Positions 894 through 28,736 of a stretch of DNA of 52,289 nucleotides are shown in pieces. Position numbers and translations under genes: made by a program. The notes under the pieces are model-generated. The model was not told the origin of the DNA. It made no database searches and was given only the letters and a program-made list of their open reading frames with translations. The first letter of the stretch is position 1. Every line of letters starts with the position of its first letter. The DNA lies in the NCBI GenBank assembly GCA_964596155.1, contig CAZQSI010000014.1, positions 1 through 52,289 on the forward strand. The letters are read 5' to 3'. Source of the DNA: an uncultured Chitinophagaceae bacterium (lineage in GTDB: Bacteria; Bacteroidota; Ignavibacteria; UBA10030; UBA8401).

Positions 894-3023
894 TTACTTT
901 ACCGGTTGAGGTTCAGGAGCAGGAGCAGCATCTTTTTTCTCCTGCGTCATTAACGCCTTCCTACTGAGATTTAGTCTTCCTTTTTCATCAATCTCAAGTA
1001 ATATTACTTCGATGACGTCGCCGACTTTTACAACATCGGAAACTTTTGCAACGCGTTTGACATCCAGCTGAGAAATGTGAATCAAACCTTCTTTGCCGGG
1101 AAGGATTTCAGCAAAGGCGCCGAAATCCATAATGCGCTTCACCGTCGCTTTATAAATTGTTCCCGGTTCGGGAACAGCGGTAATTGCATTGATCAGCGCA
1201 AGTGCTTTGTCGCTTGCTTCCTTCGTTGTTGCGGCAATTTGGATTGAGCCATCATCTTCAATGTTGATGGACGTCGCACCGGAATCCGCCACAATACTCC
1301 GAATCATTTTCCCGCCCGGTCCGATGACAGAGCCAATCAGATCCGTCGGGATTTTTATCGTCGTAAATCGCGGCGCATACGAACTTAATGCCCCGCGCGG
1401 TTTGTCGACAGCAGCATTCATTTTTTCCAGCTTGTGTAATCTGCCTGCTTTTGCCTGCTCCAGCGCTGTTTTCATAATCTCAAGCGTAATGCCTTGAATT
1501 TTAATATCCATCTGAAATGCGGTAATTCCATCGACGGTTCCGGCCACTTTAAAATCCATATCGCCGAGATGATCTTCGTCGCCGAGGATGTCGCTTAAAA
1601 TCGCCACACGGTCATTTTCTTTCACCAATCCCATTGCAATTCCCGCACATGCCTTTTTAAGCGGCACACCTGCATCGAACAATGCAAGAGAACCGGCGCA
1701 GACCGTTGCCATGGAAGAAGATCCGTTCGACTCAAGAATGTCCGAAACGATTCGAATCGTATAAGGAAATTCTTTTTCGTCCGCTATCAAATTTTTCAAA
1801 GCCCGTTCCGCAAGATTTCCATGTCCTATTTCGCGGCGGCCCGTTGTTCCAAGGCGTCCAACCTCTCCGACACTGAACGGCGGAAAATTATAATGCAGCA
1901 TGAACCGGCGGGGTTTGAATTCAATCAAACCGTCCGTGTTTTGTTCGTCATCCTTTGTTCCCAGCGTGACAGTTGTGAGCGACTGTGTTTCGCCGCGGGT
2001 GAACAATGCCGAACCATGCGCCCGAGGAAGCACAGCAGTTTCGATAGTAATGGTGCGGACATCGGCAAGACCACGGCCGTCAAGGCGTTTTTTCTCGCCG
2101 AGAATCATTTCGCGCATTTCACGTTTTTCGATGTCGTGAATAATTTCCTGAATCGTCTCTTCCTGTTCGGGATATTTTTCTTTCAGCGATTCCAGAACAC
2201 CTTCAACAATTTCATTGCGGCGGGCAGAGCGTTCATCCTTCGCACTGACAGTGTGTGCTGCAGTTCGTAGCTGTTCCGCAGCAAGCTTTTGGACATCGCT
2301 CAATAATGCCTGATCGAATACTTTCGGTTCAACGACACGCTTTGTCACCTTCACAGCGGCGGCGAATTCTTTCTGAATCTGACAAATCTTTTTGATTGCT
2401 TCATGACCGAATGCAAGAGCAGCGAGCATATCCTCTTCCGATATTTCTCTCGACTCCCCTTCCACCATCAGAATGGAGCTCTCGGTGCCGGCAACCGTCA
2501 CGTCCATATCGCTCAATTCAAGTTCGGCGAATGTCGGATTTATTAAAAACGAACCGTTCAACCGTCCCACACGCACTTCTGCGATCGGACCCTGAAACGG
2601 TGAATCGGAGATCATCAATGCGGCCGACGCGGCGCAAGCACCGAGGACATCGGCATCATTCTGTTGATCCGATGAATATACGGTCACAATGACCTGGGTA
2701 TCGCAATGATAGTTTTCCGGAAACATCGGCCGAATCGGTCGATCAATCAACCTGGCGGACAATATTTCCTTGTCCGACGGGCGCCCTTCCCTCTTCAAAT
2801 AACCGCCGGGGATCTTTCCTGCAGCGGATAATTTTTCTCTGAATTCCACTTGAAGGGGAAAATAATCAGCACCTTCTTTTGGCTTTTTGGCAGAGACAAC
2901 TGTAGCCAATACCATGGTGTCCGCATATCGGATCATCACCGCGCCGTCTGCCTGTTTGGCAAACCGGCCTGTTTCAAATTCCAGATCGTACTTGCCGATC
3001 GTGGCGCTCTTTTTTACTATCAT
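894..3023 (-). CDS. pnp: Polyribonucleotide nucleotidyltransferase (PNPase)
   Basis: Two RNase PH domains (RLIDRPIRPMF; RREIGHGNLA; SDILESNGSSSMA; EDHLGDMDFKVAG), KH (VIGPGGKMI) and S1 domains; follows rpsO. Confidence 0.98.
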   Translation of the reverse strand: MIVKKSATIGKYDLEFETGRFAKQADGAVMIRYADTMVLATVVSAKKPKEGADYFPLQVEFREKLSAAGKIPGGYLKREGRPSDKEILSARLIDRPIRPMFPENYHCDTQVIVTVYSSDQQNDADVLGACAASAALMISDSPFQGPIAEVRVGRLNGSFLINPTFAELELSDMDVTVAGTESSILMVEGESREISEEDMLAALAFGHEAIKKICQIQKEFAAAVKVTKRVVEPKVFDQALLSDVQKLAAEQLRTAAHTVSAKDERSARRNEIVEGVLESLKEKYPEQEETIQEIIHDIEKREMREMILGEKKRLDGRGLADVRTITIETAVLPRAHGSALFTRGETQSLTTVTLGTKDDEQNTDGLIEFKPRRFMLHYNFPPFSVGEVGRLGTTGRREIGHGNLAERALKNLIADEKEFPYTIRIVSDILESNGSSSMATVCAGSLALFDAGVPLKKACAGIAMGLVKENDRVAILSDILGDEDHLGDMDFKVAGTVDGITAFQMDIKIQGITLEIMKTALEQAKAGRLHKLEKMNAAVDKPRGALSSYAPRFTTIKIPTDLIGSVIGPGGKMIRSIVADSGATSINIEDDGSIQIAATTKEASDKALALINAITAVPEPGTIYKATVKRIMDFGAFAEILPGKEGLIHISQLDVKRVAKVSDVVKVGDVIEVILLEIDEKGRLNLSRKALMTQEKKDAAPAPEPQPVK

Positions 3024-4299: not shown

Positions 4300-5015
4300 A
4301 CCTGCGGTACCACAGGATGAAGTTTAGCATTTAATGTATGCAATTGATCTATTCCCAGAGCATCCGATAATGAAAAATCACCGATCATCGTTCTGGTTAA
4401 CCGTTTCAAGTACGCACCGCAGCCGAGTGTTTCTCCGAGATCATTCGCCAAAGCTCTTATATACGTGCCTTTGGAGCAGACAACTCTAAATTCCGCCAGC
4501 GGCGGATTCCAGGCGATCAAATTAAATGCCTTGATTTCAATTTCCCGTGTCGATCTGCTCACTTCTTTACCTTTTCGCGCATCCTTATAAAGCCTTCGTC
4601 CATTCTTTTTAATAGCCGAATACATCGGAGGAAGCTGCTGCTGTTTACCTAAAAAAGATTCCATTGCACGGTGGATTTTATTTTCGTCTACTAAGCTAAT
4701 ATCATTGGTTTCAAAGATTTCCGTCTCCGAATCAAAGCTTTTTGTACGGGATCCCAATTCCATTGCACCCGTATATTCTTTTTCCAGACCGACAATACTA
4801 TCAATATTTTTGGTCATTTTACCGGTGCAGACGATTAACAATCCCGTTGCTTTAGGATCCAGCGTCCCTGCATGTCCCACCTTTTTAATCTCAAACATTG
4901 TCCGGATTCTTGCAACCACATCAAATGAGGTCCAATCAATCGGTTTATTGACCAGAATGATCTCTCCTTCTTCAAAATCCAGACGCTGCTTTTCTCCCGC
5001 ATGTACCCACATCAC
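4296..5015 (-). CDS. truB: tRNA pseudouridine(55) synthase
   Basis: [36 protein letters not shown] and [10 protein letters not shown] motifs. Confidence 0.97.
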
Positions 5016-5371
5016 TCTTCCTTCTTATCCGACTTATGGATCTGCTTTATCAACTCTTCGATATGCATTGCATTGTCCAGAGACGTATCATGATGAAATT
5101 CAATATCCGGCACAAACTTGAGATTAATCCTTGAGCCAAGTTCCGAACGATAGCGTCCTTTGTGTTTCTGGATCTGTTCCATCGTCTTTTCCTGCTTCTC
5201 TTTTGATCCCATGATACTGACGAACACCCGTGCAATACGCAGATCGGGCGTTACGCGGGCTTCGGTCACGGTGGCAAAGCCGTATTCCGTGCTTCCGCTG
5301 TACGCTCTGCTGAGCATTGTTCCCAATTCTTCCCTGATCAGAGAAGCGACCCGTTCGGTTCTGATCGACAT
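5012..5371 (-). CDS. rbfA: Ribosome-binding factor A
   Basis: [13 protein letters not shown]...[19 protein letters not shown]...[12 protein letters not shown]; sits between infB and truB. Confidence 0.95.
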
Positions 5372-7986
5372 TATGACAACTTTCTTTTTGTTTCTACAAG
5401 TTTATATGATTCGATGATATCGCCAACTTTAACGTCGTTGAAGTTTTCAAGACCCAAACCGCATTCGAATCCTTTGTCCACTTCCTTTACGTCATCCTTG
5501 AACCGACGGAGCGATGCCAATCCGCCCGTAAAGATGCTGACGCCGTCCCGAACCAAACGTACTTTGCTGTTTCGTGAAATCTTGCCGTCGAGAACAAAAC
5601 ACCCTGCAACAAGACCAATCTTCGGTACTTTGAAAGTTTCGCGGACCTCCACGGTTGCGACGACTTCTTCTGTCACTGTCGGAGCCAGCAATCCTTCCAA
5701 GGCATTTTTAATTTCATTAATTGCATCGTAGATGATGCTGTATAGACGGATTTCAACATTTTCTTTTTCTGCAAGTCTTCTCGCATTAAGATTCGGACGA
5801 ACATGGAAACCGACAATGAGCGCCCGTGATGCGGCAGCCAACACGATATCAGATTCTGAAATAGAGCCGACACCTTTATGGATGACTTTAATTTTCACTT
5901 CTTCCGTTGACAGTTTCATCAAGGATTCCGCCAGAGCTTCAACCGAACCGTCCACGTCACCTTTTACGACAATCGACAATTCGCGAACCTGATGCCCCGC
6001 CTGAATCTGCTGGGAGATATCATCCAGCGTCACCATATGCACCTGACGGAAGTCCTGCTCCCGCTTTAATTGCTGTCGCTTTAAGCTGATTTCGCGCGAC
6101 AACCGATCAGATTCAACGGCAATAAATTGATCTCCTGCAGCGGGAATACCGTCAAATCCAAGAATTTGAACAGGGGTCGACGGAGGAGCAGTGGTAACTT
6201 TTCTGCCGCGTTCGTCATACATAGCTTTTACTTTACCGCTGTAGATACCGCAAATAAACGGATCGCCTACTTTCAGCGTACCTTTTTGCACCAGCACAGT
6301 GCCGATTGTTCCTTTTCCTTTGTCCACCTGAGATTCAACAACAGCACCACGCGCCATCCGATCGGGATTCGCTTTCAAATCCAACACCTCGGCCTCAAGC
6401 AAAATCTTTTCAAGAAGGATATCCATGTTCTTTCCTGATTTTGCAGAAACTTCCACAGACTGATACTTGCCACCCCACTCTTCAACCAGCACACCGCGAT
6501 CCGACAATTGCTGCCTAATCCTGTCGGGATTTGCTTCCGGTTTATCCACTTTATTAATAGCAATGATAATCGGCACATTCGCCGCCTTCGCATGGTTGAT
6601 CGCCTCGATTGTCTGCGGCATGACATTATCTTCCGCCGCAACGACAAGGACAACGATGTCCGTTACCTGTGCACCGCGTGCTCGCATTGCAGTAAATGCT
6701 TCGTGACCCGGTGTATCAAGAAACGCGATATGTTTTCCGCTCGGCAATTCTACTTCATACGCACCGATGTGCTGAGTGATTCCGCCCGATTCGCCGGCAA
6801 CAACATTTGCATTGCGAATGTAATCGAGCATGGATGTTTTACCATGATCCACATGTCCCATGATGGTGACAACGGGAGCACGGGGTTTAAGTGTTTCGGG
6901 AGCGTCCGGCGTATCTTCCAGCGTTTCAACAGTGAACTCCGATTCGAATTCAACCTGCTTGCCGAATTCATCAGCTAGTAAGACAATCGTATCCTTGTCC
7001 AGCCGCTGATTGATGGAGACCATCATTCCGAGACTGATACATTTCGCAATGACATCGGAGGGACGGACATTCATCAAATTTGCAATTTCGCCGACCGACA
7101 CAAATTCTGTTACGCGGATTTTATTCGCTTCCAGCGCCCGTGCTTCTTCCTGTGCCGCCTGTTCTTCTTCGCGTTCCCTCTTCCGTTTTTTTCTGAGCGC
7201 CGCTCTGGTGCTGACAACGGAATCCGCATCATCAAGTTCGGCGAGTGTACGCTTAATTGTTTCGTCAACTTCACCCTGATCAATCTCATACGGACGAAGC
7301 TTTCCTTTTTTCTTGCGTTTTTGTTTTGAATCGCTTTCGCCTTCGGCTTCCACTGCTTTTGAGTCCACCCCGCCGGCGATTTTCTTTTTCTTTTTCTTCT
7401 TCTTCTTCTGCTCTTCGCTTTCTGCAGCGTCAGCGGGAGCACCGGGCTTTGCCGGTTTAGAAGGTCGGTTCGCCGATTTCGGCTTTGCCAACTCCATCTT
7501 TCCCTTTACCGTCAATCCCTTCATTTGCGCAGTGCGATTTGCCCGAAGTGTTTCCAGGGGTGAAGTGGATTTCTCTTCTTCCGTTTTCTCCTCTTCCGGC
7601 TCCTCGAGAGGCTGCGGCAAGACCAAGGCGGGTCCTTCTTCGATTTTCGGTACTTCTTCAGCAACTACCGGTTCCTCAACAACCGCTTCGGCTTCGGACA
7701 GCTTCTTCTCTTCCGCAACAGCCTCTTCCTCCCGTGCTTTCGATTCCGACGAACGACGGCGGGCTTCCTTCATATCAGCAATTTTCCGCTGATGCCGCTC
7801 CGCGATGTCCTTTTCTTTTTTGAAATGCGCGTTAATATCACGCATCATCGTCTCGTCCACAACGGACATGATGTTCTTCACCTGTTTGTAGCCTTTTTTA
7901 TTCAAAAAAGCTACAACATCATTAAAACTGATGTTTAAATCTTTCGCAACATCCTTTACTTTTATTTTCTTTACTGCTTCGGACAT
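5371..7986 (-). CDS. infB: Translation initiation factor IF-2
   Basis: G-domain motifs [28 protein letters not shown] and NKVD; C-terminal [11 protein letters not shown]...ECG. Confidence 0.98.
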
Positions 7987-9980: not shown

Positions 9981-12900
9981 CTAAAAATATGCCCTAACCT
10001 CCATCCTCCCTGTATGCACAACGGTTGACCTCGATGTTGTCCGGCCGGAATATTGAAGGGAAAACTGCATATTTCCTGCAATTCTGTAATCGGATGACAC
10101 AGTCCATAAATAATTTTTTCCGAAATCCCTTCCCGATGTTAACTCGTACGGTATTGCATATCCCGCCGGTTGGTTTCCGATAATGACTTCTTCACGGGAA
10201 AATTCTGTTCTGATCTGACCATTGCCGATAAATCCATAAATTAATCGAACCGTTTGGCCGTTAAAATCCGCGAGGACAACAGATGATCCGGCGCGATCTT
10301 CTGCCTGACTTGTTGCAATGACGAAGCCGATCTCGATGTTTGTCTCGGGACGATACGCCAGATCCGTCGACAGGGTTGTATGGTCGATTTGCCGCGAGCG
10401 ATTAATCAGTGATGATGATACAGCATTGTCGCTTTTAAATATTACATCGGTTTGATTTGATATTTCGTTCGACACCTGAAGGCGGGACCGGACGGAACGT
10501 TCGCGTGAATAGTTGCGTTCGACACCTGATGCAAATTGACTGAGACCGTTCCTCTGATTGAATCGAAATCGAAATGAATAATCGGGATTATATTCAAAAA
10601 GATACATGTCTTGCTGAATATATTGATATCCCAGCTGAGTGGTCACGGGATGAAGGAAGCTGCTGAAATCCAGAAGATAAATTTTTCGAATGTCGGGTTC
10701 TGTGCTCCGTTCTTCAAGTCGAAGATACGTCTCCGTTGAAATTACCGTTAGTAACTCTTCGAGCGCAGAGGCAGGACGTGGAATGAAACGGCGCGGCATG
10801 ATACGGATCCGGGAGGACGCTTTCAGGTTAATGATCGGAATCAGTTGCTCGCTGTTCAATGTGAGAGCAATATATTCTCCGTCGTACCGGTCCGGAATGA
10901 ATTCCCTCTCGTCATCAAGATCGGCAATGCTGTTCCCGTTGTTATCGTTCCAAATATATTGCCCTTCCCCTTTTCGTACTTTATAAAAATACCGCTCCAG
11001 TTTCGCCGTCCTCTGTGTCGCCGCGTCATACATAAGGTCGAGATCCAACCCCTGCGATAACGGTCTGTAACGCGTTTGCGCCTTGATCAATGTCGCTTGC
11101 TGATTTGTATTATTGGACTGAAACGCCCGTTCATATTTTTTTTCACGAAATGTTACCGATGTCGAGGCCGACACATTCTGTACTTCCTTCATCTGAACCG
11201 TATAGATCTGTGTGAACGATGTTGATTGTGGTTCAAGGTAACCCTTTGCTGACGCTTCATCGTTTCTCCATTCAAATTCAGAAGAGGCATCGAATCCGAA
11301 TGCATCGTTGACGGACAATTTGGGAGCATACGTGATAAACGAATAACTTGACGATTCGAGTGAATCTGAACGGAGTGCGTTAACGGTTCTTTTTTCATTT
11401 TCAAACCGAAGGGAAGGAGTAAATTCTTTGATGGTATATTCAGTTTTTCCGTTCTGCCGCACCCAATGATTCGTTATCCTCCTCACTTTTTCCTCTCCCG
11501 AAATGCTTTCAATAAAGTACGATACTGACGGCAGTGAAGAACCATTCAATTGAAACAACCCGTCATATCGAACTGACGAAAATTGATTTTTTTGTTCCAA
11601 TGTGCCAAAACCGCCGGCAACGGTGACCGCTTTCACCGGCATATATGCAATTCTTCCTTCCCGAATCTCTTCGTCGGAAGAAGCACCCGTCGTGAGACTA
11701 TCCGTGCTCCATTTCCTTCCAAATTCAACTGCATCGATTCTGTCCAAAGACAAAAATTCTTTTTGTTTATATCGTTCATGGAGGGAAATATCCAAAGAAC
11801 CCAGAGCAATACCTCCGATAGATATATTTTTCGGATGATACCGTCCGGAGAGCTTTACCGCTCCTCCGCTGCTGGTATGTCCTTCTACTGTGGAAAATCT
11901 GTTCGGAACAAAATTACTTGCAGCATATTCTCCTGAAATTGTTACATCGGAAAACGGTTGAGCAACTGACTGAAATGAATACAATTGATGTTGTTGGGGT
12001 GCGGTGATTAACACCACCGGTGCATATTGCCCTCCGTTCCTACCGGCAAAACGATAGCGCCCGATTCCTTCCCGAATATAATCCCCTTTGCCCTGACCAA
12101 CCGGCGAAAATGCAACATTATATACTGATTGAATCGAATTCTGTTCAAATACATACATCCGAATGCTGTCATTATTGACAACCGTGTCGCGGGCGGTGTA
12201 ATTTCCTTTTCCGATTCCAAGCGAATCGCGGCCGACAAACATCACGCCTGATTTTACTGCCGTTGAACTCCCGGAATTGCGCAATAGATTTTTTTCTTCC
12301 TCGTTCAATGTTAAATCAATCGGAGCGTCGGGATCGTCACCTTCCCTGAAATAGTTCATTGTCAATGAAATATCTTTCGATACATCGGTTCTGGAATCGG
12401 CGGCAAGAAAGTTACGAGTATATTGTCGGTCGGAATATTCGAAATCAATGACAATTCTTGACGCACTTGTAATTAATCTGCCCGTTGAAAATGTCAGTTC
12501 CGCTGCTCCGTAATCTATCGAATAATCATTGTTTTCACCCCGGAGCATTTCGATTCCATCCACATACACCCGTTCGCTTCCCGGTATGATGATAATAGCC
12601 CGTTCATTGTTCTTGCCGGTCAGCCGATACGGTCCCTGGACACCTTCAATACCCGTCATTGTATTCGTCGAGTACTTTCCTCTGCTGGTTGCACCGGTCA
12701 GCTGAAGATTCGGCTTTATCATCATCCCGGTATATTCGGCGGAAAGTTTCGCGCCCTGTAATTTTCGGGAGATGTTGACGAATTCCCCTTTGTTGGATTG
12801 GAAGACAAAGTCTCCCAGCGTTGCTGTGTACGTCGGACTTTTGATTTCGACAAAAACATTGTCAATCTCCTGCAGCGATTGTGTGTTTCCCTGAGGCTGA

Positions 12901-19567: not shown

Positions 19568-19678
19568 GAATAGAGCGGAATTTTGTTGAATCTTTTTTCA
19601 CCGCCTTGTGCGAAGATCATCGGACAATTTAATATATTGCATAGCAGATTCAGACAACAATCGCCAATCATCGGATTT

Positions 19679-20965
19679 ATGATGAAGATCTCAACAATCT
19701 TAGGAATATGTTTTACGCTTCTCAGCATTCCCTTGTTTGGTCAACAGGTTCAATATTGGCAGAAACTTCCTAATCCTACCAATCATACACTCTCCCGAGT
19801 TTATTTTATCGACAGTCTGCGCGGATGGATTACCGGTCAAAACGGCGTTCTGATGCAGACGACGGACGGCGGCACAAAATGGAAGCAGCAAATTTCCGGT
19901 ACGACGGGAGAAGTCCCCGATCTTTTTGTCCGCACAGAACTGGATCTTTGGGCGCTCGAATATATTTATCCTGTGGACGATACGTCATGGTTTGGAACGC
20001 ATATTTTGCATTCCACAAACGGAGGAGAATCGTGGTCAATTCAGCGTTTTGACAGCGCAATCTTTCGAACAATCATGTTTCAGGATTCTCTGACAGGATT
20101 TATGGGCGGATCATACGGCCGCATCGTGAAAACCACCGATGGCGGAGTGAATTGGTATACGGTGAGCGACAGCGCAACACATAAATTTCCCATCTATACA
20201 ATACGATTTTTTTCCCGCGAGTACGGATACGCAGTCGGAGGTCAACTGGAAATTGCGGGAATCATCTGGCGCACGACTGACGGCGGCGAAACGTGGCGCT
20301 CCAGAATTGTCAGCGGTGATCCTGTCTTTAACATCCATTACTTCGATTCGTCGCATGTTCTCACAAGCATGGGCGATATCGATCAAGCCGGAGCGGGATT
20401 TTTACGAACAGAAGATGGAGGCGAAACATGGAGTTTTGAAAATACCACCATCTGGGGCGAACCGACAACATTTGCCTATCGAACAGAATCGGAAGGTTGG
20501 GTGCCGATGGGGATTGCAGGAATGTGTCTCAAAACGATAGACGAAGGCCGAACGTGGCAGCAAATTGTTCTCCCTCAACAGATTCCGGTGTACGATATTT
20601 CCTTTCCCGATCAACGGACCGGATTTATGGTTGGTCATAAAGGAGCATTATATAAATTCAACAGCTCCGTCCTATCCGTTCGTCAACAATCTCAGAATCC
20701 AGTTTCATTATCATTATTTCAAAACTTTCCGAATCCATTCAACGGTGAAACGGTGATAAAATATCATCTGTCTGATCCGTCCACAGTGAAATTGGAAATT
20801 TTCGATGCCGTCGGACGATCGATGGAGATTCTGCTTGATGAGGTGCAAATTCGCGGTGGGCATACCGTGCGGTGGGACTCCAAACAACTTTCGAGCGGCA
20901 TGTACTTCTATCGTCTTTCCGTTAACGGTTTGTTGACGCAAAAGAAGATGATTCTCCTGCGATAA
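19679..20965 (+). CDS. YCF48/BNR-repeat beta-propeller protein with a T9SS-type CTD; start reassigned from 19583 to MMKIST
   Basis: Repeated TTDGGxxW Asp-boxes, signal peptide after 19679, and an LFQNFPNPFN...KKMILLR tail. Confidence 0.85.
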   Translation: MMKISTILGICFTLLSIPLFGQQVQYWQKLPNPTNHTLSRVYFIDSLRGWITGQNGVLMQTTDGGTKWKQQISGTTGEVPDLFVRTELDLWALEYIYPVDDTSWFGTHILHSTNGGESWSIQRFDSAIFRTIMFQDSLTGFMGGSYGRIVKTTDGGVNWYTVSDSATHKFPIYTIRFFSREYGYAVGGQLEIAGIIWRTTDGGETWRSRIVSGDPVFNIHYFDSSHVLTSMGDIDQAGAGFLRTEDGGETWSFENTTIWGEPTTFAYRTESEGWVPMGIAGMCLKTIDEGRTWQQIVLPQQIPVYDISFPDQRTGFMVGHKGALYKFNSSVLSVRQQSQNPVSLSLFQNFPNPFNGETVIKYHLSDPSTVKLEIFDAVGRSMEILLDEVQIRGGHTVRWDSKQLSSGMYFYRLSVNGLLTQKKMILLR

Positions 20966-20979
20966 CCACACGCGGTTTA

Positions 20980-22569
20980 CTATCTCTGAAACACCATTTT
21001 CCTCGTCATCGACATTTTCCCGGTTTCCAGACGATAAAAATATATTCCGCTCGTCAGGTAATCCGGTGCATCAAACGATAATCGATGATATCCCGTTTCC
21101 ATCATCCCGTCTGCGAGAACCGATACGATTCTTCCCAGAAGATCGAACACTGTAACCCGAACGATACTTTCTTCTTCGAGAGAAAAAGAAATTTGCGTGG
21201 ATGGATTAAACGGATTGGGATAATTTTGGTACAAGTGAAAATCATTGGCAAACGTTTGATTCCGAGAAACCGAAACAAGAGATGAAATCGGAATACGGGA
21301 CGACCAAATCTGATATAGTCCGCTTGAATTGTCCATCCACATAGGAATGAGCGACGTCCCGACACTAGTTAAACCGATATTGTCTCCCTGATATCCCTGT
21401 CCCAGTCCTCCAATCGACTTCGGCTGGAAATAATGATCACTGACAGGAAAATCTTTCCAGCTCTCTCCCCCGTTTGTAGAGCGCGAAAGAAATACACCGG
21501 CAGAATCACTGCTCGTAAATCTGTCGTCGTAATAGATGACATTCACTCCTCCTCCGTCATCCACATGAATGGCGGGAAAATATTGAATCTTCCCGTTGTT
21601 AACTGGATCCTGATGTATTCTAATTCCCTGACTCCACGTTACACCTTTGTCGGTTGATCGATAAAAAATAATATCAGGATCAGTTCCGGCAGGAGTAAGA
21701 TTTTTTTGTGCTGTAACGACATAAATCCATCCGCGCCGGGGTCCTGAAGTCCTGTCAACATCCATCCTCGGCAGCCCATTCACCCGAATAGAAGATTTTT
21801 GAGGCAAGATTCCCTGAATACCGTTGATGTCGATCGCATTCTCAGTGACATTCCACGAAATCCCTCCGTCAAATGATCGTGCAAATCCCAAAAAATCTTC
21901 CGTGTATGGTGATTGATTTAAGACACCTGCCCATACAGCATACACCGCACTGTCCGGTCCAACGGAAATTTCCGCACCCTGGCTTCTTTGGAGAGGATTA
22001 TTGATTGCTGAGGGATTCGTCCACGTTCCACCGGCATTATCTGAAAAAGAAATTTTTAACGGAAACGGAGGAAGAAGTTCCACATACGCCGTATATGTTC
22101 TGCCGTAAAACGGACTTAATGGATTTACATCGCTGATTACCGAAGCCCGATCCTGACGTTCTATTGCAATCGTTCTTTGCGACGACCAAGTTGCACCTCG
22201 ATCTGTCGAAGTGTGAGCAAATAAACCATCCTGAAAACCGAGTCTTGTAAGAATAAACGCTCCGGATTTGTCGATTGCAATGCCGGGATCGCCCCGGTGA
22301 AACAACATTGGTGCACCTGTACACGTATCATTTCCTTTCCAGGATATTCCTCCGTCCGTCGAAGAATAGATTCCTTCACTGATGAATCCTGTCGCCAAAT
22401 TGATCGTATTTGCGCTGCTAAATAGAATGTTTCCATCCGTCGGATGTCTGACAACAAAAACTTCCGTCTGCGTAACGGTGCTCGGATAAATTCTGAAGTT
22501 TGTCTGAGCTTCCGCAAAGACGAAAACAACGAAAAAAAGGAGGAATAGTTTTTTATTATACCTATTCAT
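20980..22569 (-). CDS. BNR/Asp-box (sialidase-fold-like) secreted protein with a T9SS-type CTD
   Basis: Repeated SxDxGxTW boxes (STDGGISW, STDRGATW, SFDGGISW, STNGGESW), GDPGIAID, YQGDNIGL, and an LYQNYPNPFNPST tail. No sialidase catalytic residues were confirmed. Confidence 0.8.
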   Translation of the reverse strand: MNRYNKKLFLLFFVVFVFAEAQTNFRIYPSTVTQTEVFVVRHPTDGNILFSSANTINLATGFISEGIYSSTDGGISWKGNDTCTGAPMLFHRGDPGIAIDKSGAFILTRLGFQDGLFAHTSTDRGATWSSQRTIAIERQDRASVISDVNPLSPFYGRTYTAYVELLPPFPLKISFSDNAGGTWTNPSAINNPLQRSQGAEISVGPDSAVYAVWAGVLNQSPYTEDFLGFARSFDGGISWNVTENAIDINGIQGILPQKSSIRVNGLPRMDVDRTSGPRRGWIYVVTAQKNLTPAGTDPDIIFYRSTDKGVTWSQGIRIHQDPVNNGKIQYFPAIHVDDGGGVNVIYYDDRFTSSDSAGVFLSRSTNGGESWKDFPVSDHYFQPKSIGGLGQGYQGDNIGLTSVGTSLIPMWMDNSSGLYQIWSSRIPISSLVSVSRNQTFANDFHLYQNYPNPFNPSTQISFSLEEESIVRVTVFDLLGRIVSVLADGMMETGYHRLSFDAPDYLTSGIYFYRLETGKMSMTRKMVFQR

Positions 22570-24690
22570 TTACAGTGAATACCCAAGATTTAATGAGAGA
22601 AAATAGTTTCTCGGCTCACCCGCTTCATAATATTCTTTTCGATCGGAATTAATATTGATGAAAGCGATATGGGACGTGTTCAGTATGTTGTTGATGCCGT
22701 ACGACAGCAGTATATTCGTCCGTCCTAATACTATATCAGTGCCGATCGTTGCTCCAAATAACCGGTAATCACCGGAACGATTGGAATTCTCGTCATTCAC
22801 GAACATTCCGCTGACAAAAGAATAATTTGTTTTTACGAAGCCGGTCAGTTGCTCCCCAATTCGATGCTGATATGACACGCTGGCTGATACGTTATGCTCC
22901 GGCACACTGGGAACGCGTTTTCCGGAAAACACCGACTCTCTTACTGTATCCATCGCTGCATTGTATGTTTTCACACCATAGGTTGTGTATGAAAAATCGG
23001 AATAGGTATAGGCACACTTCAGATTCAGATTGGAAAGAACGGAGGTGGAAATGCCAAATTCAACTCCCGATCTGTTCGTTTCCGCCGCATTACGGTAAAA
23101 GACGCTGCTGCCGATGGAAAACGGAACTATTTCATCTTTGATTCTGCTGTTAAAGAGAACAAGCTCAAACCGCGATTGTGAAAAATAATCTCCGTCGGAC
23201 AGGACCGTTCCTTTTGTCCCAATTTCCATATTCCGCGAGTTCTGCGGTTTTAAATCCGGGTTGATCAATTTCGGATAATTGGAACTTAACGGATAATTTT
23301 CCATTTCATTACCGGCAGGAGAATCAAATGAATATCCGTACGAACCAAAGAGTCCAATCGCCGGTGTGATTTTATAATTGACGGCAACTTTAGGAGTGAA
23401 TGCTTCAAACACCCGCTTCGCATTCCGAACTTCAAGATTTCTGTCCACCTGGTCAAAGACGACTTTATCGTGACGCCCCGTAACCAAAAGATCGACCTTG
23501 TCCGGAATAATGGAAACGGTTGTCAAAAAATATGCACCGACGTTATCGATTGTTTCGTCTGTCAGCAAATCCACCGGTTCCCCCTTCTTTCCTCCGAAAT
23601 TCTGATACTCCTCGATCGGACCGTATTGATGGAAAAGATCGACACCCGCAGAAAATTCCACGGGAATCTCCGCCACCGACGATGAATAAATCCACCGTCC
23701 CGTTCCGCCGATGCCATTCCGGTTTATGAATCGATAGGTCGCAGCCGTCCGTTCAAAATATTTTATGGTGCCGTATCCCGTAAATTCAAGTTGATTGTTT
23801 TTCTGTCCGTCGAGGAATGTTTTGTATCGAACGCCAAAACGTCCTTTTTTTGACACACGCTTTGCATCACGCCCGACATCACGCGGATTTCCCATGAATG
23901 GGTCCGTTTCATATTGCTGTTGTGTCAGCGATCCGGGCAGTTTGATGATACCATCCACATAATAGAGAAGCAATGTTAACGTTGAACGATCATTCGGAGA
24001 CGTTTCATAGACGGAATTGAGAATGTTCCAATGATCGTTGCTGTGCGGTCTGTATCCCCGTGCCGTATGATATGTATACGTGGAAAGAAATTTTGATCCT
24101 TCGCTTTTCAGTGCCAATTTGATTCCATTGTTCCTCGTGCCGAACGACGCTGCTTCATTAAATTGTATGACATGACTTTCCGTAAAATCAATATCATTAA
24201 TAAAGTTGATCACCCCTCCCGGTGCGTTCGTATATAATGATGATGCATTCCCTTTCACGATCTCTATCCTGCCGATTGAATGAAAATCGATCGCTTCGAT
24301 TCTGGTCTGGCCGTCCGGTTCGGATTCCGGAATGTCATCCAGCAATATCCTCACACCGCGGATTCCCGAATTTGACCGGGAACCAAATCCGCGGATGGAA
24401 ATACGTACGTCATGATTTCCGTATCGGTTTTGAAAAAACAATCCGGGCGTACCGCCGAGCACGTCGGTGACGGAATTCTTTCGGTCGTACCGGAAATCAT
24501 AATTGTTAATCCGTTCAACGGAGTACGGAATGTCGATGATTTTTTTAAGTGTCCGTGTTCCGGTCACAACCATCTCATCAATTTCGTACGACCGAACACT
24601 ATCTTGCGGAGACGCCGGTTCCAAATCGCCGGCAACCAATGGGTAACTAAACAATAACAGCAATCCGCTGACAATACATCCGCGATACAT
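22570..24690 (-). CDS. TonB-dependent receptor (resembles the YncD/PqqU-type subfamily); start likely ATG 24690
   Basis: TonB-box-like EMVVTGTR; plug motif SIRGFGSRS...RGVRILLDDIP...DG...IEIVKGNASSLY; beta-barrel ending GEPRNYFLSLNLGYSL; AAGGA ribosome-binding site at 24696-24700. Confidence 0.9.
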   Translation of the reverse strand: MYRGCIVSGLLLLFSYPLVAGDLEPASPQDSVRSYEIDEMVVTGTRTLKKIIDIPYSVERINNYDFRYDRKNSVTDVLGGTPGLFFQNRYGNHDVRISIRGFGSRSNSGIRGVRILLDDIPESEPDGQTRIEAIDFHSIGRIEIVKGNASSLYTNAPGGVINFINDIDFTESHVIQFNEAASFGTRNNGIKLALKSEGSKFLSTYTYHTARGYRPHSNDHWNILNSVYETSPNDRSTLTLLLYYVDGIIKLPGSLTQQQYETDPFMGNPRDVGRDAKRVSKKGRFGVRYKTFLDGQKNNQLEFTGYGTIKYFERTAATYRFINRNGIGGTGRWIYSSSVAEIPVEFSAGVDLFHQYGPIEEYQNFGGKKGEPVDLLTDETIDNVGAYFLTTVSIIPDKVDLLVTGRHDKVVFDQVDRNLEVRNAKRVFEAFTPKVAVNYKITPAIGLFGSYGYSFDSPAGNEMENYPLSSNYPKLINPDLKPQNSRNMEIGTKGTVLSDGDYFSQSRFELVLFNSRIKDEIVPFSIGSSVFYRNAAETNRSGVEFGISTSVLSNLNLKCAYTYSDFSYTTYGVKTYNAAMDTVRESVFSGKRVPSVPEHNVSASVSYQHRIGEQLTGFVKTNYSFVSGMFVNDENSNRSGDYRLFGATIGTDIVLGRTNILLSYGINNILNTSHIAFININSDRKEYYEAGEPRNYFLSLNLGYSL

Positions 24691-24789
24691 GGGATTCCTT
24701 TCGAATGAATGCACCGCCGCATAGCCGTGCCTTTTGTTTCATTACAACTGTTGATGGCGATGCAGCGATAAATGACGATTGTTAAAATG

Positions 24790-25320
24790 TCATAAGAACG
24801 GAAAACGCGGGGGCGGGAGTTCAATTTTTGGACGCCGGGCTATAATTTCCCAATCTGACGATTGTTCCTGAATACCGGTCATTGTTACGTCCGATAGAGA
24901 AAAAGCACTTTCGGGAGAGAAGAGAACGAATCCGTTCACTGCTGATTGCAAGAATTGAATTGCTGCCGGTGAATTATCTTTTGTTTTATTGGCAAGAAAT
25001 CCTAAAAACTTTGCAGCCATTTTTTCTTCTGCGGTATCGCGATAACAATACAGTATGTAGTGATCCTGATCCGTTTCACGCCAAACCACATCATACATTT
25101 GATCATTATATTTAAATTCACGTTCATGAATTTTCACCCGGTCAAATTCTGATTTGGACATTCGTATGGAAAGAATACTCTCCGGTGATTGCCGGGTGTT
25201 GATGATTGCAGCAACGGATGCCTTGTGAATCCATTGACGGACTTGCAGTCCGAATATTAGTCCGCCGGCATCAATTACCAAAACAGCAAGGATCACTATG
25301 GATATGAATTTGCGGTTCAC
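24790..25320 (-). CDS. Membrane-anchored hypothetical protein upstream of the TBDR, with a C-terminal PPP motif (GTG start)
   Basis: N-terminal hydrophobic helix; EFKYNDQMYDVV...YCYRDTAE segment, which I recognise as typical of Bacteroidota ORFs preceding TBDRs; ends ELPPPRFPFL. Confidence 0.7.
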   Translation of the reverse strand: MNRKFISIVILAVLVIDAGGLIFGLQVRQWIHKASVAAIINTRQSPESILSIRMSKSEFDRVKIHEREFKYNDQMYDVVWRETDQDHYILYCYRDTAEEKMAAKFLGFLANKTKDNSPAAIQFLQSAVNGFVLFSPESAFSLSDVTMTGIQEQSSDWEIIARRPKIELPPPRFPFL

Positions 25321-25367
25321 AGAGTAATATATAAAATTTATTTCCGCCGGATGCTTTTTAAAGTGAA

Positions 25368-28300
25368 TTATTTGATGACAATCATTTTTTTTGTCGAATG
25401 GTAGGTCCCTGATCTCAAGGTATAGTAATATACGCCTGACGATACACCGGATGCATCATAATATTCACGGTGAAATCCCTTTTCCCTGAATCCTTCGGCA
25501 AGGGTCTGAATGATTCTGCCCAGCGCGTCATACACAATTAACGTTACGAAACTCCGTTTCGGCACCGTAAACTCTATCGCCGTTAATGGATTAAACGGAT
25601 TCGGATAATTCTGCAGCAGCGTATAATCGTCCGGAAGAAGAGATTTGTTTCCCGAAGCGTCCGCAATGTCATCCGGATTCAGTGCTATTGAAGTAATATT
25701 CGAAGCCCCTAAATCTAATATTTTTACCGCCTGTCCGTTTGCAGTGTCCACCGTCAGCAGCTTATTTTGCGCAGTATTGATGCCTGCAAGAACATACAAC
25801 GTTCCGTTTTTATCAAACAACAGATCGGAATTCGAAATACCGACACCGGTTCGTCCAACCATTGTGACCGCTTTGGTCGTTAAATTTATTTTATAAATAC
25901 CGTCCAATATTCCCGATGTTGCCCGCAGACAGAACCAGAGAGTACCGTCAATCGGGTTCAAAGCCAATCCGCCGACACGGAGCGCGGTGGAAGCAATCTG
26001 AGTGTACGAACCGTTATATATATTTACCCGAAAAATTCTTCCGTTAAAATCCGCCATATAGGCGATGGAGTCATCGACAAATGTCAATCCTTTTAAATTG
26101 GTGACGCGGACATTGGTGAGATACCGTACACTCGATCCGGTTGCACTGATTTTATAGAGATAACCTCCTTCAAGTCCCCCGGTCGGATCCAATCCAATCA
26201 ATTCTTTTGTTGCAGGGTGAACCCGCAAACTTGTCACTTGTCCCAAACCGGAATGAGCGATGAAGGAAAGATTTCCGCTGCCGGAGTGTATCTGATATAA
26301 TTTTCCGCCATCCGTAGAGCCGGATGCGGCATACAGTGTCCCTTTCCTGGCCGGTGTTATGTGAAAACCGGTGCCGGTAAGAACCGTTAACGTCGATGTT
26401 GTGAAACAAGCTTGTGCGGCACAATACAAAATCGAATCGGACAAATATCCGGTGCTGTCAGGTGAAAAATAAACTCTGAGCGGATACGTTCCCAAACTTG
26501 GAATGATGATCGGAAGCTGCGGTTCATTAACAAATCGAAAGTGCTTCGATGTTTTTGTTAACACGGAGATATATAAATCCTCCGTGCCGTCGTTTGTTAA
26601 TGTAATTGTAATTGTATCACTGCTGCTGCCGACATTTTTTGTTCCAAAATTTATATATGTTCTGTCGGTTGTTAACTTGCTCCCGGGTACTGGACCAAGC
26701 TGAGTTTTCGCGACCCATGTTCCCCACTTATTTTTCGCCGCCGCAAATTCGGTATGAATCCACACCGACACTCCGTCGGACGGATCCAATCCGATGCCGT
26801 TATAATCCCCCCATCGATTCCGTCCGACGCCGTAATCGACGACATAATTTCCGCGCCCTTCCCTTAAAGCAACACTCGGCGAGAGTCCGGGTGGATCATT
26901 TTTTTTCCTTCCGGTCATAAAAGCACCGATATATTCAGACACTCCGGACCTGCTGAATGTAATTGTTAGATCACCTCGATCGTTGAGCATCATCGCAGGA
27001 TATGAATGCCAGTATCCGTCTAATCCGAACGATACGTCTTCCTTCGTCTGTTTAAGAAACGGGTCGAATTTAAGATACCGAACCGCCGAATATTGTTTAT
27101 TCGGTCCGCTTGCTACTGCATGCACAGCCCAGAGAGCGCTATCCTTGTAGAACGGTTCGTTGCGAATGTCGGCTCCGAATGCTTCTATCGGAATTGAGGA
27201 TCCATCCAACTGATCCGCATCCGGTGAAGGAAAATATTGAACGACCGGAACATCCGCAGCGGTTATGGAAGGAGACGAAACGGCACTGTCAACAGTCCAT
27301 AGCGTGAAAAACGTTCCGAGAAAGTACGGAGAATCATTCAGCAAAAATTGTTTGCCGGGATTTCCGAATGTTATGCTGGGTCTGAGTCCAAAGATGACGT
27401 TGTTGAGGTTATCGGGATCTCGGAAATCCCAAAAGTCATACCATTGAATGGCATGTCCGCTGTTTTCATACAACTGCGGTTTCGGAACAATGCGCAGTTT
27501 TGAGTACGCAAAATCGGTTGTAAAACCGAATTGGTTTCCTGTAATATAGATAGCATCCTCATCAAAACCGACTCGGGCATAGTCAGTCCAATTTGAGACG
27601 GTGGAGTCTCCGATTACATGTGCAGGCATTGCCCAGTTGTACCAAAAGCCGAGCGGATTGCTGTCATCCGAAATGCCGAGAAAGATGTATGCTTTTTTTT
27701 GTGCATCAACTACATGCAGCATAACAAAGATCCACCGCTGATCGAAATGATCATACATGAGGATTGGATCAAACGTGCTCGCTCCGGAAAGCACCTGATC
27801 GAACCATGCATCTGCATCAATTGTTTTCAGAATACTTCCCGATTTATCAAAAATTCGGAATGTGGAATTCACCGCGATCATGACATGATCCGGTCCAACG
27901 GCAAGAATCGGATCGGGTGGAATGTAATTCGTCTGCGGAATTCCCTCGAAACTCTCAAGTGCAACCGGTCTCGAAATTGTTGCGCCGCTGTTTGCGTCAG
28001 ATTCAACCGAACGGTCTGCATAATAATTTGATCCGTACGATGCGAGCGGTTCAACCATGGATTCCGGCGGCGGCAGTTTTGCAATCCTTTTGTTAATATT
28101 TGGTTTTTTTAATTTCGGCCGGGATAACGGAATTTCTGCGACGGCGGGAAAATTGTCGGTGTTGGTGATAACGCCGTTGTTCACAGTTCCCTTTTTTGGT
28201 CCCTTCACGAGCGGGGGAAGAATAGGAGCGTACACATTCAGCAGCAGATCTCCCCCCGTCGGAGTCCCACCATATGTTCCGCCTCCTCCCCACTCTCCGA

Positions 28301-28736
28301 TCATAAGATAATATGTGGTGCCGGCAACAACATTAAATCCGAATGCAGATTGCCGCGTGTCGAGCGTGTCGTCGTTGCATTTCACTTCAGAAAGATTACC
28401 GCACGATCCGACGAAGAGCGACATAATAATATCATAATCCGCCATCGGCTCGCTGCCGAGCGTACTGAAGACGACAAACCGCGTTGTATCGGGTGTGAAT
28501 TTGAACCAAACCGTTTTTCCGTTCTGTATGCTGTCCTGACAGGTCAAAGCGGGATCCGATGCATTCGGCGATGCGAGGCGGGTATTCTGGCTGACGGAAA
28601 AAGGAAGAGAAGAAATAACCATCGCCGAGGAACATTCATCATTCGCAATTTGAGCACCGGCAGTGTTCAAAGAAATCAGAAAGAATGCTGAAAACAGCAC
28701 AACAATTTTCTTAACTAATTTTCGATTAAAGTTCAT
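25368..28736 (-). CDS. Secreted multidomain protein with a T9SS-type CTD (paralog B)
   Basis: Collinear with 16132-19491 over its whole length (ANDEC...GKTVWFKFTP...GGTPTGGDL...PPDPILAVGPDHV...RNRWGDY...FGTKNV...QNYPNPFNP). Start overlaps the glcF stop by 11 nt. Confidence 0.85.
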   Translation of the reverse strand: MNFNRKLVKKIVVLFSAFFLISLNTAGAQIANDECSSAMVISSLPFSVSQNTRLASPNASDPALTCQDSIQNGKTVWFKFTPDTTRFVVFSTLGSEPMADYDIIMSLFVGSCGNLSEVKCNDDTLDTRQSAFGFNVVAGTTYYLMIGEWGGGGTYGGTPTGGDLLLNVYAPILPPLVKGPKKGTVNNGVITNTDNFPAVAEIPLSRPKLKKPNINKRIAKLPPPESMVEPLASYGSNYYADRSVESDANSGATISRPVALESFEGIPQTNYIPPDPILAVGPDHVMIAVNSTFRIFDKSGSILKTIDADAWFDQVLSGASTFDPILMYDHFDQRWIFVMLHVVDAQKKAYIFLGISDDSNPLGFWYNWAMPAHVIGDSTVSNWTDYARVGFDEDAIYITGNQFGFTTDFAYSKLRIVPKPQLYENSGHAIQWYDFWDFRDPDNLNNVIFGLRPSITFGNPGKQFLLNDSPYFLGTFFTLWTVDSAVSSPSITAADVPVVQYFPSPDADQLDGSSIPIEAFGADIRNEPFYKDSALWAVHAVASGPNKQYSAVRYLKFDPFLKQTKEDVSFGLDGYWHSYPAMMLNDRGDLTITFSRSGVSEYIGAFMTGRKKNDPPGLSPSVALREGRGNYVVDYGVGRNRWGDYNGIGLDPSDGVSVWIHTEFAAAKNKWGTWVAKTQLGPVPGSKLTTDRTYINFGTKNVGSSSDTITITLTNDGTEDLYISVLTKTSKHFRFVNEPQLPIIIPSLGTYPLRVYFSPDSTGYLSDSILYCAAQACFTTSTLTVLTGTGFHITPARKGTLYAASGSTDGGKLYQIHSGSGNLSFIAHSGLGQVTSLRVHPATKELIGLDPTGGLEGGYLYKISATGSSVRYLTNVRVTNLKGLTFVDDSIAYMADFNGRIFRVNIYNGSYTQIASTALRVGGLALNPIDGTLWFCLRATSGILDGIYKINLTTKAVTMVGRTGVGISNSDLLFDKNGTLYVLAGINTAQNKLLTVDTANGQAVKILDLGASNITSIALNPDDIADASGNKSLLPDDYTLLQNYPNPFNPLTAIEFTVPKRSFVTLIVYDALGRIIQTLAEGFREKGFHREYYDASGVSSGVYYYTLRSGTYHSTKKMIVIK

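Follow-up and report, generated by a model that had tools for sequence, protein, structure and literature searches.

What does a small protein that carries three consecutive prolines almost at its C-terminus do directly in front of a nutrient receptor gene? The question is raised by contig CAZQSI010000014.1 of assembly GCA_964596155.1, from an uncultured Chitinophagaceae bacterium placed by GTDB in the class Ignavibacteria of the Bacteroidota. The 52,289 nucleotides analysed here (the window) hold, on their minus strand, an open reading frame (ORF) of 176 aa that begins with GTG, encodes an N-terminal helix, ends in a Pro-Pro-Pro (PPP) tail and lies 99 nt before a TonB-dependent receptor (TBDR) gene. 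A preliminary description of this DNA had named each of these elements and read the ORF as a ribosome-arrest leader; every element was confirmed. We lean, by a narrow measure of confidence and on the evidence of sequence, towards the reading that this ORF is a cis-acting regulatory leader or sensor for the TBDR gene that follows it, working through a putative pause at PPP. Two outcomes named in that description as refuting its reading, a PPP that is not conserved and homologues without linkage to TBDRs, could be checked on sequence, and both checks went in favour of the reading. The arrest-leader interpretation is supported by in-silico tests of the conservation of PPP, the linkage to TBDRs, the non-AUG starts, the spacer before PPP and the pairing of the RNA; ribosome stalling at PPP and its cis effect on the receptor are putative, and are proposed by analogy with characterised leaders.

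The protein reads MNRKFISIVILAVLVIDAGGLIFGL...EFKYNDQMYDVVWRETDQDHYILYCYRD...RRPKIELPPPRFPFL, and its C-terminal tail, RRPKIELPPPRFPFL, closes as ELPPPRFPFL, with PPP (residues 169-171, codons CCG CCC CCG) in the context E-L-P-P-P-R. Its GTG start lies at 25320-25318, and no in-frame ATG, GTG or TTG is found 5' of it, back to the stop codon of the upstream gene, which encodes a cargo protein of the type IX secretion system (T9SS). The lack of a Shine-Dalgarno sequence and the TATATT box 5 nt upstream, both pointed out in the preliminary description, are there in the sequence: TATATT (25331-25326) is followed by ACTCT and then by GTG, and no purine-rich Shine-Dalgarno was seen before it. Because of the GTG start, the source assembly cuts the gene to 102 aa, from Met75 (24790-25098, minus strand; P0001). 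Judged by the full-length homologues, this call is truncated, and such miscalls are probably common in the leader family because its genes start with UUG or GUG.

Four close homologues of 168-176 aa align across the whole ORF at 48-57% identity. Their C-terminal third is the most variable part of the protein apart from L-P-P-P-R, which is invariant in all four and stands four residues from the end. The codons of PPP vary synonymously among them (CCG CCC CCG, CCA CCG CCG, CCT CCG CCG), and across the wider family each of the three positions uses all four proline codons, showing that selection acts on the peptide. One close homologue (P0005, JGI) bears in its source the name 'uncharacterized protein (DUF2235 family)', which no Pfam match backs.

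These proteins belong to a very large family. A profile search of 1.84 billion cluster representatives (50% clustering) returned 2194 representative proteins at E <= 1e-3 and 66 at E <= 1e-10, and the best 150 of the family matches are mostly 165-190 aa long. Neither Pfam nor NCBIfam models matched the window's leader protein or ten distant members. As for 'HYC_CC_PP', which we take to be a Bacteroidota family of NCBIfam, no NCBIfam model matched the leader family and we make no claim about it. The family consensus consists of an N-terminal 'MKK', one hydrophobic helix, a core, about 70 little-conserved residues and PPP[K/R]. The core consensus is E68-F-x-Y-x-G-x-M-Y-D77 ... Y-C92-x-x-D95-x-x-E98-x-x-L, with E68, F69, M75, Y76, D77, C92, D95 and E98 conserved; E68, D77, D95 and E98 are invariant or nearly so, and C92 is present in 88%. 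The small domain that had been noted in the window as EFKYNDQMYDVV...YCYRD thus turned out to be the real core of a family, conserved from E68 to E98.

The conservation of the terminal PPP extends from the four close homologues to 138 of the 152 family members in hand (91%), in which it lies inside the last 30 residues; PP is found there in 11 more. In 128 of the 138 the motif is only 2-7 residues from the C-terminus, and PPP occurs elsewhere in the protein in none of the 152. It is followed by K (72 members), R (30), Q (12) or E (9) and preceded by S, T, L, I or A, giving the motif [S/T/L]PPP[K/R]. The PPP of the window is therefore not a chance feature, the chance expectation for a protein of this size being well under 1%.

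The family is widespread in the Bacteroidota in the GTDB sense, the window itself being from a class other than Bacteroidia: of 301 phylum genomes sampled evenly, 63 have it, as do 43 of the 143 genera. Named carriers include Saprospiraceae, Chitinophaga, Bacteroidales, Cytophagales, Ignavibacteriaceae and many Flavobacteriales (Aequorivita, Flavobacterium, Maribacter, Polaribacter and Cryomorpha). Cultured bacteria are among them: Flavobacterium celericrescens, Polaribacter porphyrae NBRC 108759, Aequorivita spp., Maribacter sp. X9 and Cryomorpha ignava. The window's own genome has a single copy. Several genomes hold 2-5 copies, and one locus (L069, G097:C1) carries tandem leader-TBDR modules about 7 kb apart, at 4983-5534 and 11791-12363. 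Four further family loci (L109, L121, L122 and L151) lie on contigs labelled as Hyphomicrobiales, Comamonadaceae or Rhizobium metagenome-assembled genomes (MAGs), which are most likely mis-binned Bacteroidota.

Whether homologues consistently precede TBDRs was another check set in the preliminary description, and they were found to do so far from the window. The linkage seen in the close homologues is uninformative because their loci are fully syntenic. Among the 30 best loci of the phylum, a long ORF on the same strand begins 23-215 nt after the leader stop codon in 29; all 29 encode a Pfam Plug domain and 15 also CarbopepD_reg_2. In the thirtieth (L024), longer flanks (L068) place a TBDR that overlaps the end of the leader gene, bringing the count to 30 of 30. 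In a set of independent named loci, gathered with the subfamily alignment from Saprospiraceae, Chitinophaga, Flavobacteriales, Bacteroidales and Cytophagales, a TBDR lies within 400 nt downstream of 76 of the 78 complete family genes, of which 74 carry PPP and 77 PP. The gap between leader and TBDR has a median of ~82 nt, with a tight cluster at 75-103 nt, and the receptors are of at least two architectures, with and without a CarboxypepD_reg domain.

Thirty weaker, divergent matches, whose tails end in PP[E/Q/D], have a more mixed neighbourhood. A TBDR is directly downstream in 14 and one or two genes further on in five, often past an AhpD/CMD-like gene. In the remaining 11, one of which reaches the contig end, no TBDR was detected downstream, and the genes scanned there are VCPO/PAP2-like, DUF3179 or CMD-family. 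Loci of this divergent branch (L038, L040, L042, L048 and L057; L039, L043 and L049) have downstream a VCPO/PAP2-like (DUF6851) or DUF3179 gene, or else an AhpD/CMD-like 'peroxidase-related' gene with a TBDR after it. That the leader stands before receptors of at least two architectures, and also before some genes that encode no receptor, is easier to reconcile with a portable regulatory module than with a dedicated subunit.

In the window, the receptor gene begins exactly 99 nt after the leader stop codon, at an ATG (24690) preceded by GAAAGGAA, and its product of 706 aa compares with 705-706 aa in homologues; an alternative start, GTG at 24714, is probably not used. The protein matches the Pfam models Plug (2.9e-18) and TonB_dep_Rec_b-barrel (3.4e-40). 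Its best NCBIfam match is PqqU-like, at 238 bits far under the cut-off of 1200, and NCBIfam therefore assigns it no substrate. Initiation in the Bacteroidota proceeds largely without Shine-Dalgarno sequences. In the clade of the window (with L004, L011, L161 and L162) a Shine-Dalgarno-like GAAAGG or AGGAG lies 6-9 nt before the receptor AUG, and five close-clade loci besides the window have such a sequence at a like position; members from Bacteroidia have A-rich leaders before the receptor AUG, not a Shine-Dalgarno-like sequence.

The unusual start codon of the window's leader gene is a trait of the family, since most family loci have only UUG or GUG starts: in 75 of 117 loci (~64%) the stretch from the upstream stop codon to the transmembrane helix contains no in-frame AUG. 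The non-AUG starts are mostly UUG, typically as UUG-AAA ('L-K-K'; for example L022, L023, L077 and L132). The suggestion that the transcript may be leaderless stood only in part. In three loci of the window's genus a -10-like hexamer lies 4-5 nt before the non-AUG start (TATATT-N5-GTG in L011 and CATAAT-N4-TTG in L008/L001 among the window's relatives), an arrangement compatible with, though no proof of, a leaderless transcript in that genus. For the family as a whole it does not hold, since many Bacteroidia loci have a promoter-like TAnnTTTG motif ~24-37 nt 5' of the start, suggesting that there the leader gene heads the transcript with a short 5' leader. In the window, a simple sigma-70 scan found no full promoter at the TATATT upstream of the leader, and no intrinsic terminator was found in the intergenic region between leader and TBDR.

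An AlphaFold2 model built with 106 family sequences (mean predicted local distance difference test, pLDDT, of 82) consists of a long helix at residues 2-41, made up of the anchor and a charged extension, a beta sheet at 49-94, helices at 96-114 and 120-131, and a stretch without secondary structure from 132 to 176. The pLDDT exceeds 90 over most of the beta sheet and the first helix after it and falls to ~70 by the second. A Foldseek search of the model against PDB gave nothing below E = 0.1 (best E 0.12). E98 and PPP are 69-72 residues apart in 69% of members (range 61-78), across a stretch that is not conserved in sequence. The end of the structured part is separated from PPP by ~38-40 residues, about as many as span the ribosomal exit tunnel. 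The whole domain would thus have just emerged when the ribosome reaches PPP.

RNA pairing at the junction of the two genes was assessed per locus with z-scores from dinucleotide shuffles and with control windows from the same locus. A permuted-locus control for duplex energy was dropped, as it was confounded by genome G+C and same-locus coding windows were equally low. When the segment from PPP to the receptor start is folded, many loci form a long-range helix around a central hairpin, joining the last codons and stop codon of the leader to the stretch just 5' of the receptor ATG. Duplexes between the region from PPP to 15 nt past the stop codon and positions -35 to +20 of the receptor ATG have a mean z of -1.34 (z <= -2 in 35 of 101 loci, <= -3 in 14), while three control window pairs have a mean z near 0, with 0-6 loci at z <= -2 (Wilcoxon p ~1e-10). 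For the segment that begins just past PPP and stops 8 nt short of the ATG, the mean z of the minimum free energy (MFE) is -2.85, with z <= -2 in 47 of 83 loci, as against -0.66 and -0.16 in coding controls of equal length. In a partition function over a wider context, the region from the first codon after PPP to 12 nt past the stop codon forms 8.5 expected pairs with positions -35 to +3, compared with 1.7 in shuffles, and at least 6 expected pairs of the helix are present in 53 of 83 loci.

The position of this helix is tied to PPP. Its 5' arm starts a median of 3 nt past the last proline codon (<= 12 nt in 48 of 51 loci) and takes in the stop codon in 47 of 51; in longer or shorter tails its start stays in place (rho -0.08) and its distance to the stop codon changes (rho -0.55, p 3e-5). 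The 3' arm is found 5-35 nt 5' of the receptor start codon, usually at about -30 to -10. The sequences of the arms differ widely between loci and their complementarity is kept, as in CGTACATTTTCC/GGAAAATGTATG and CTTCTTGATCGAT/ATCGATTAAGAG, with G-U pairs used; a last codon of AGT, GGT or TGT pairs with AACT, AACC or AACA in different loci. With PPP in the decoding centre, a paused ribosome would cover ~12-15 nt of downstream mRNA, and these coincide exactly with the 5' arm.

No Rfam family was found in the intergenic region, either in the window or in the 20 loci scanned; the only hit of these scans, a SAM-II riboswitch in L148 (see below), lies outside it. The central hairpin recurs mid-gap across Saprospiraceae and Flavobacteriales (L077-L112 and others). 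Its conserved base is GTCTGC...GCAGAC or GTCCAC...GTGGAC, and TAAAC(C)TATTT comes next. The degree of conservation exceeds what the flanking helix needs, and the hairpin may be a protein-binding or processing element.

At the window's own locus, MFE and centroid folds pair UUCCGUUC, at the end of the leader gene, with the receptor's GAAAGGAA, with one mismatch, and an internal hairpin (24712-24770) dominates the intergenic fold. Its relatives differ among themselves: L011, of the same genus, forms a perfect 12-bp helix over its Shine-Dalgarno-like sequence and AUG (arms CGUACAUUUUCC/GGAAAAUGUAUG, 19.7 expected pairs), and the helix is present in two loci of the same order (L010 and L015).

We propose the following sequence of events. 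Translation of the leader would start at a weak non-AUG codon, its N-terminal helix would anchor the nascent chain in the inner membrane, and the small folded domain (~49-131), with its conserved Glu, Asp and Cys, would emerge. After roughly one further tunnel length of translation, the ribosome would meet Pro-Pro-Pro, 2-7 codons before the stop, and pause. Consecutive prolines slow peptide-bond formation and are a substrate of elongation factor P (EF-P), and a ribosome stalled near the end of a leader ORF can free a downstream initiation site (SecM, MifM, CutF) or block Rho (TnaC, CruR). In the leader family the paused ribosome would occupy the mRNA just downstream, that is the 5' arm, keeping the helix open and licensing initiation at the receptor. 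In loci without the helix, apparently including the window, the pause might serve, on the model of CruR, to protect the transcript against termination or decay. EF-P would help to set the length of the pause, and so would the nascent domain, according to whether it has inserted into the membrane, folded, or bound a ligand through its E/D/C residues.

Several observations weigh against this proposal. The window's own RNA lends it little: the duplex does not outscore its shuffles (z -0.34), the ensemble, with 0.35 expected pairs, predicts no coupling helix, the intergenic fold is not more stable than shuffles (z -0.57), and L008, of the same genus, has 0.0 expected pairs and no coupling helix. 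If the window's leader regulates its receptor, it may do so by another route, such as protection of the transcript from Rho or decay, by analogy with CruR. About one-third of family loci likewise lack the helix. RNAalifold on MAFFT alignments recovers no consensus long-range helix, only five central-hairpin pairs or none, because the arms lie in shifting registers; the RNA evidence consists of per-locus statistics, and no column covariation is claimed. EF-P normally relieves a pause at PPP but not an arrest at RAPP (PMC12992588), and the pause at the leader PPP may therefore be short. The charges flanking the single N-terminal hydrophobic helix, which is found throughout the family, do not settle its membrane orientation. 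The pLDDT around PPP (~82) is above that of the neighbouring coil and in the model could reflect docking of the tail on the domain, and a domain so well conserved and confidently folded may mean that the leader protein has a function of its own. Finally, the sequencing runs that hold the window locus are DNA metagenomes only, with no RNA runs.

Some of these points would be expected if the protein were an ordinary inner-membrane-anchored partner of the receptor system, handling its substrate or contacting the receptor or the TonB complex, an alternative that we consider unlikely but take seriously. PPP[KR] would then be a polyproline-II docking or recognition element or a cap, and the RNA helix an ordinary translational-coupling or mRNA-stability element. 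The confidently folded domain with its invariant E68, D77, D95 and E98 and near-invariant C92, the pLDDT at PPP and the lack of a coupling helix in the window all agree with such a partner, and the gene pair is strictly kept, as partners would be. It would, however, be unusual for a dedicated partner to stand before at least two receptor architectures as well as AhpD/CMD-like, VCPO/PAP2-like and DUF3179 genes; the predominant UUG and GUG starts imply low expression; and the 37 residues before PPP are an unconserved coil of conserved length. Moreover, a docking motif explains neither why PPP is always a few codons from the stop nor why the RNA helix tracks PPP and not the stop codon.

A different use of the prolines, which we judge improbable, is as an EF-P-dependent throttle on the leader's own copy number, with the receptor relying on its own promoter or initiation; the polyproline of E. 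coli CadC reportedly works in this way. A non-AUG start and PPP would each help to hold the protein at low abundance, and some intergenic regions, at up to several hundred nt, have room for promoters. Yet a throttle could sit anywhere, whereas PPP is confined to the stretch 2-7 codons before the stop, and the pairing of the adjacent mRNA with the receptor initiation region and the tight distribution of gaps point to coupling. Least credible is that the inverted repeat around the intergenic region acts on DNA, as an operator pair or as a recombination or mobile-element scar unrelated to the conservation of PPP: around the stop codon many arms do have a near-palindrome (GTTAAC or TTTAAA, for example), but arm sequences vary widely while complementarity stays, G-U pairs are used, and the arms, ~50 nt from each other, keep a fixed position with respect to the stop and start codons.

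The regulatory reading has precedents in proteobacteria. CruR of Bordetella pertussis (Bp2923, 145 aa, DUF2946/PF11162) carries RAPP three residues from its end, lies upstream of the TBDR gene bfrG (product BfrG) and acts in cis by ribosome stalling, with Rho termination, independently of EF-P (PMC9426467). The leader family resembles it in being a small protein with an N-terminal helix that is a putative export or anchor signal, a conserved internal motif of putative sensing function and a Pro-Pro motif near the C-terminus, encoded at the head of an operon with a TBDR as the next gene and a long intergenic region (162 nt in CruR); the conserved spacing of E98 and PPP parallels that of CXXC and RAPP, which matters in CruR. 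It differs in its motif ([S/T/L]PPP[K/R], not RAPP), in having a single conserved Cys and acidic residues in place of CXXC, in its larger, beta-rich domain, in the translational-coupling helix of most of its loci, and in that PPP is a classical EF-P substrate. Membership in DUF2946 was considered and rejected: PF11162 matched neither the window ORF at E <= 0.1 nor ten distant members at E <= 1, and there is no CXXC or CxxxC. A six-frame search with PF11162 found none in the window's own genome and a match over the cut-off in one of 151 phylum genomes, at other loci.

In CutF of Rhodobacter capsulatus, another DUF2946 protein, the C-terminus is Pro-rich and a stem-loop shields the downstream ribosome-binding site (PMC9973294). 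Shared with the leader family are an exported sensor, putative in the leader family, with a proline-rich, stalling-like C-terminal motif and an intergenic stem-loop opened, or here proposed to be opened, by a ribosome lingering at the leader end; CutF differs in preceding a multicopper oxidase, in its cleavable Sec signal and CxxxC copper site, and in belonging to another family and phylum. The RAPP/RGPP arrest peptides (ApdA, ApdP and ApcA), for which a 2025 survey of upstream ORFs lists a TonB-related class (PMC12992588), likewise have a C-terminal Pro-Pro motif near the stop, an N-terminal localisation signal and a position upstream of the regulated gene, but that class is defined by R-A/G-P-P and by robust arrest refractory to EF-P. 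The leader family was not assigned to the RAPP class (Sakiyama 2021; Fujiwara 2025), as it has no Arg-Ala/Gly context before PPP. A search for R-A/G-P-P would miss it for the same reason. SecM (~170 aa), MifM and VemP also combine an N-terminal signal or anchor with an arrest few codons before the stop, where the stalled ribosome frees the downstream ribosome-binding site. The leader protein shares with them a putative N-terminal anchor and the proposed pause few codons before the stop, and is similar in length to SecM. They regulate protein-export factors via specific tunnel-interacting sequences, whereas the leader family precedes a nutrient receptor, not a localisation factor, and its tunnel-resident segment is unconserved.

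The features of the locus are listed below. Within 19583-28736, the leader-TBDR pair is surrounded by T9SS-sorted proteins: one of 1122 aa is encoded upstream, and BNR/sialidase-like and YCF48-like BNR proteins follow on the downstream side. Further upstream there is a GlcD/GlcF-like pair. Close relatives keep this gene order. Elsewhere, a SAM-II riboswitch (70.7 bits) at 1535-1593 (+) of L148, in a Rikenellaceae MAG, lies ~1.4 kb upstream of the leader and appears unrelated.

Features of the leader-TBDR locus in the window (window coordinates)
Feature	Position	Strand	Basis
-10-like hexamer TATATT, candidate promoter element of a possibly (nearly) leaderless transcript	25326..25331	-	sequence; same-genus relatives
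Leader/sensor protein gene (proposed role), 176 aa, GTG start, large unnamed Bacteroidota family	24790..25320	-	homologues; profile search
N-terminal transmembrane helix, ~residues 5-27, MNRK then hydrophobic stretch	25240..25308	-	hydropathy; AlphaFold2 helix 2-41; family-wide
Conserved folded domain (predicted), residues 49-131, with E68, D77, C92, D95, E98	24928..25176	-	AlphaFold2; conservation
Spacer, residues 132-168, little conserved, predicted coil, ~one exit-tunnel length	24817..24927	-	AlphaFold2; column conservation
PPP codons, proposed ribosome pause site	24808..24816	-	sequence; homologues; family count
Tail R-F-P-F-L and stop UGA; pyrimidine-rich UUCCGUUC	24790..24807	-	complementary to the receptor's GAAAGGAA, one mismatch
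Intergenic region, 99 nt	24691..24789	-	sequence
Strong internal hairpin AUCGCUGCAUCGCC...GGCUAUGCGGCGGUG in the intergenic region	24712..24770	-	MFE and centroid folds
Shine-Dalgarno-like GAAAGGAA, 4 nt 5' of the receptor ATG	24695..24702	-	sequence; relatives
TBDR gene, 706 aa from ATG 24690	22570..24690	-	Pfam Plug and barrel

The principle of such a leader is known from proteobacteria; what is new here is a very large unnamed family with a different fold, a plain polyproline motif in place of RAPP and a characteristic non-AUG start. Beyond the window, we tentatively raise the possibility, more doubtful than the role proposed for the window's ORF, that these proteins form a phylum-wide class of plain-polyproline nascent-chain sensors in the Bacteroidota, in which the membrane-anchored domain would read the receptor substrate or the state of the envelope and set an EF-P-sensitive pause at PPP, and the paused ribosome would melt the helix and license translation of the TBDR.

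TBDRs dominate nutrient capture by the Bacteroidota in soil, sea and gut, and their known control is mostly transcriptional, through pairs of extracytoplasmic function (ECF) sigma and anti-sigma factors, hybrid two-component systems and riboswitches. If the proposal is true, thousands of receptor genes would be under a previously unrecognised translational switch made up of PPP, a weak start codon and an RNA helix, and a large family that is annotated as 'hypothetical' and often mis-called would gain a role. The principle of CruR and CutF would be extended to another phylum, protein fold and stalling chemistry, and the family would offer a natural system for force- or ligand-modulated polyproline pausing. 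On the more doubtful phylum-wide reading, EF-P activity and the force of co-translational folding would be tied directly to nutrient uptake in thousands of species.

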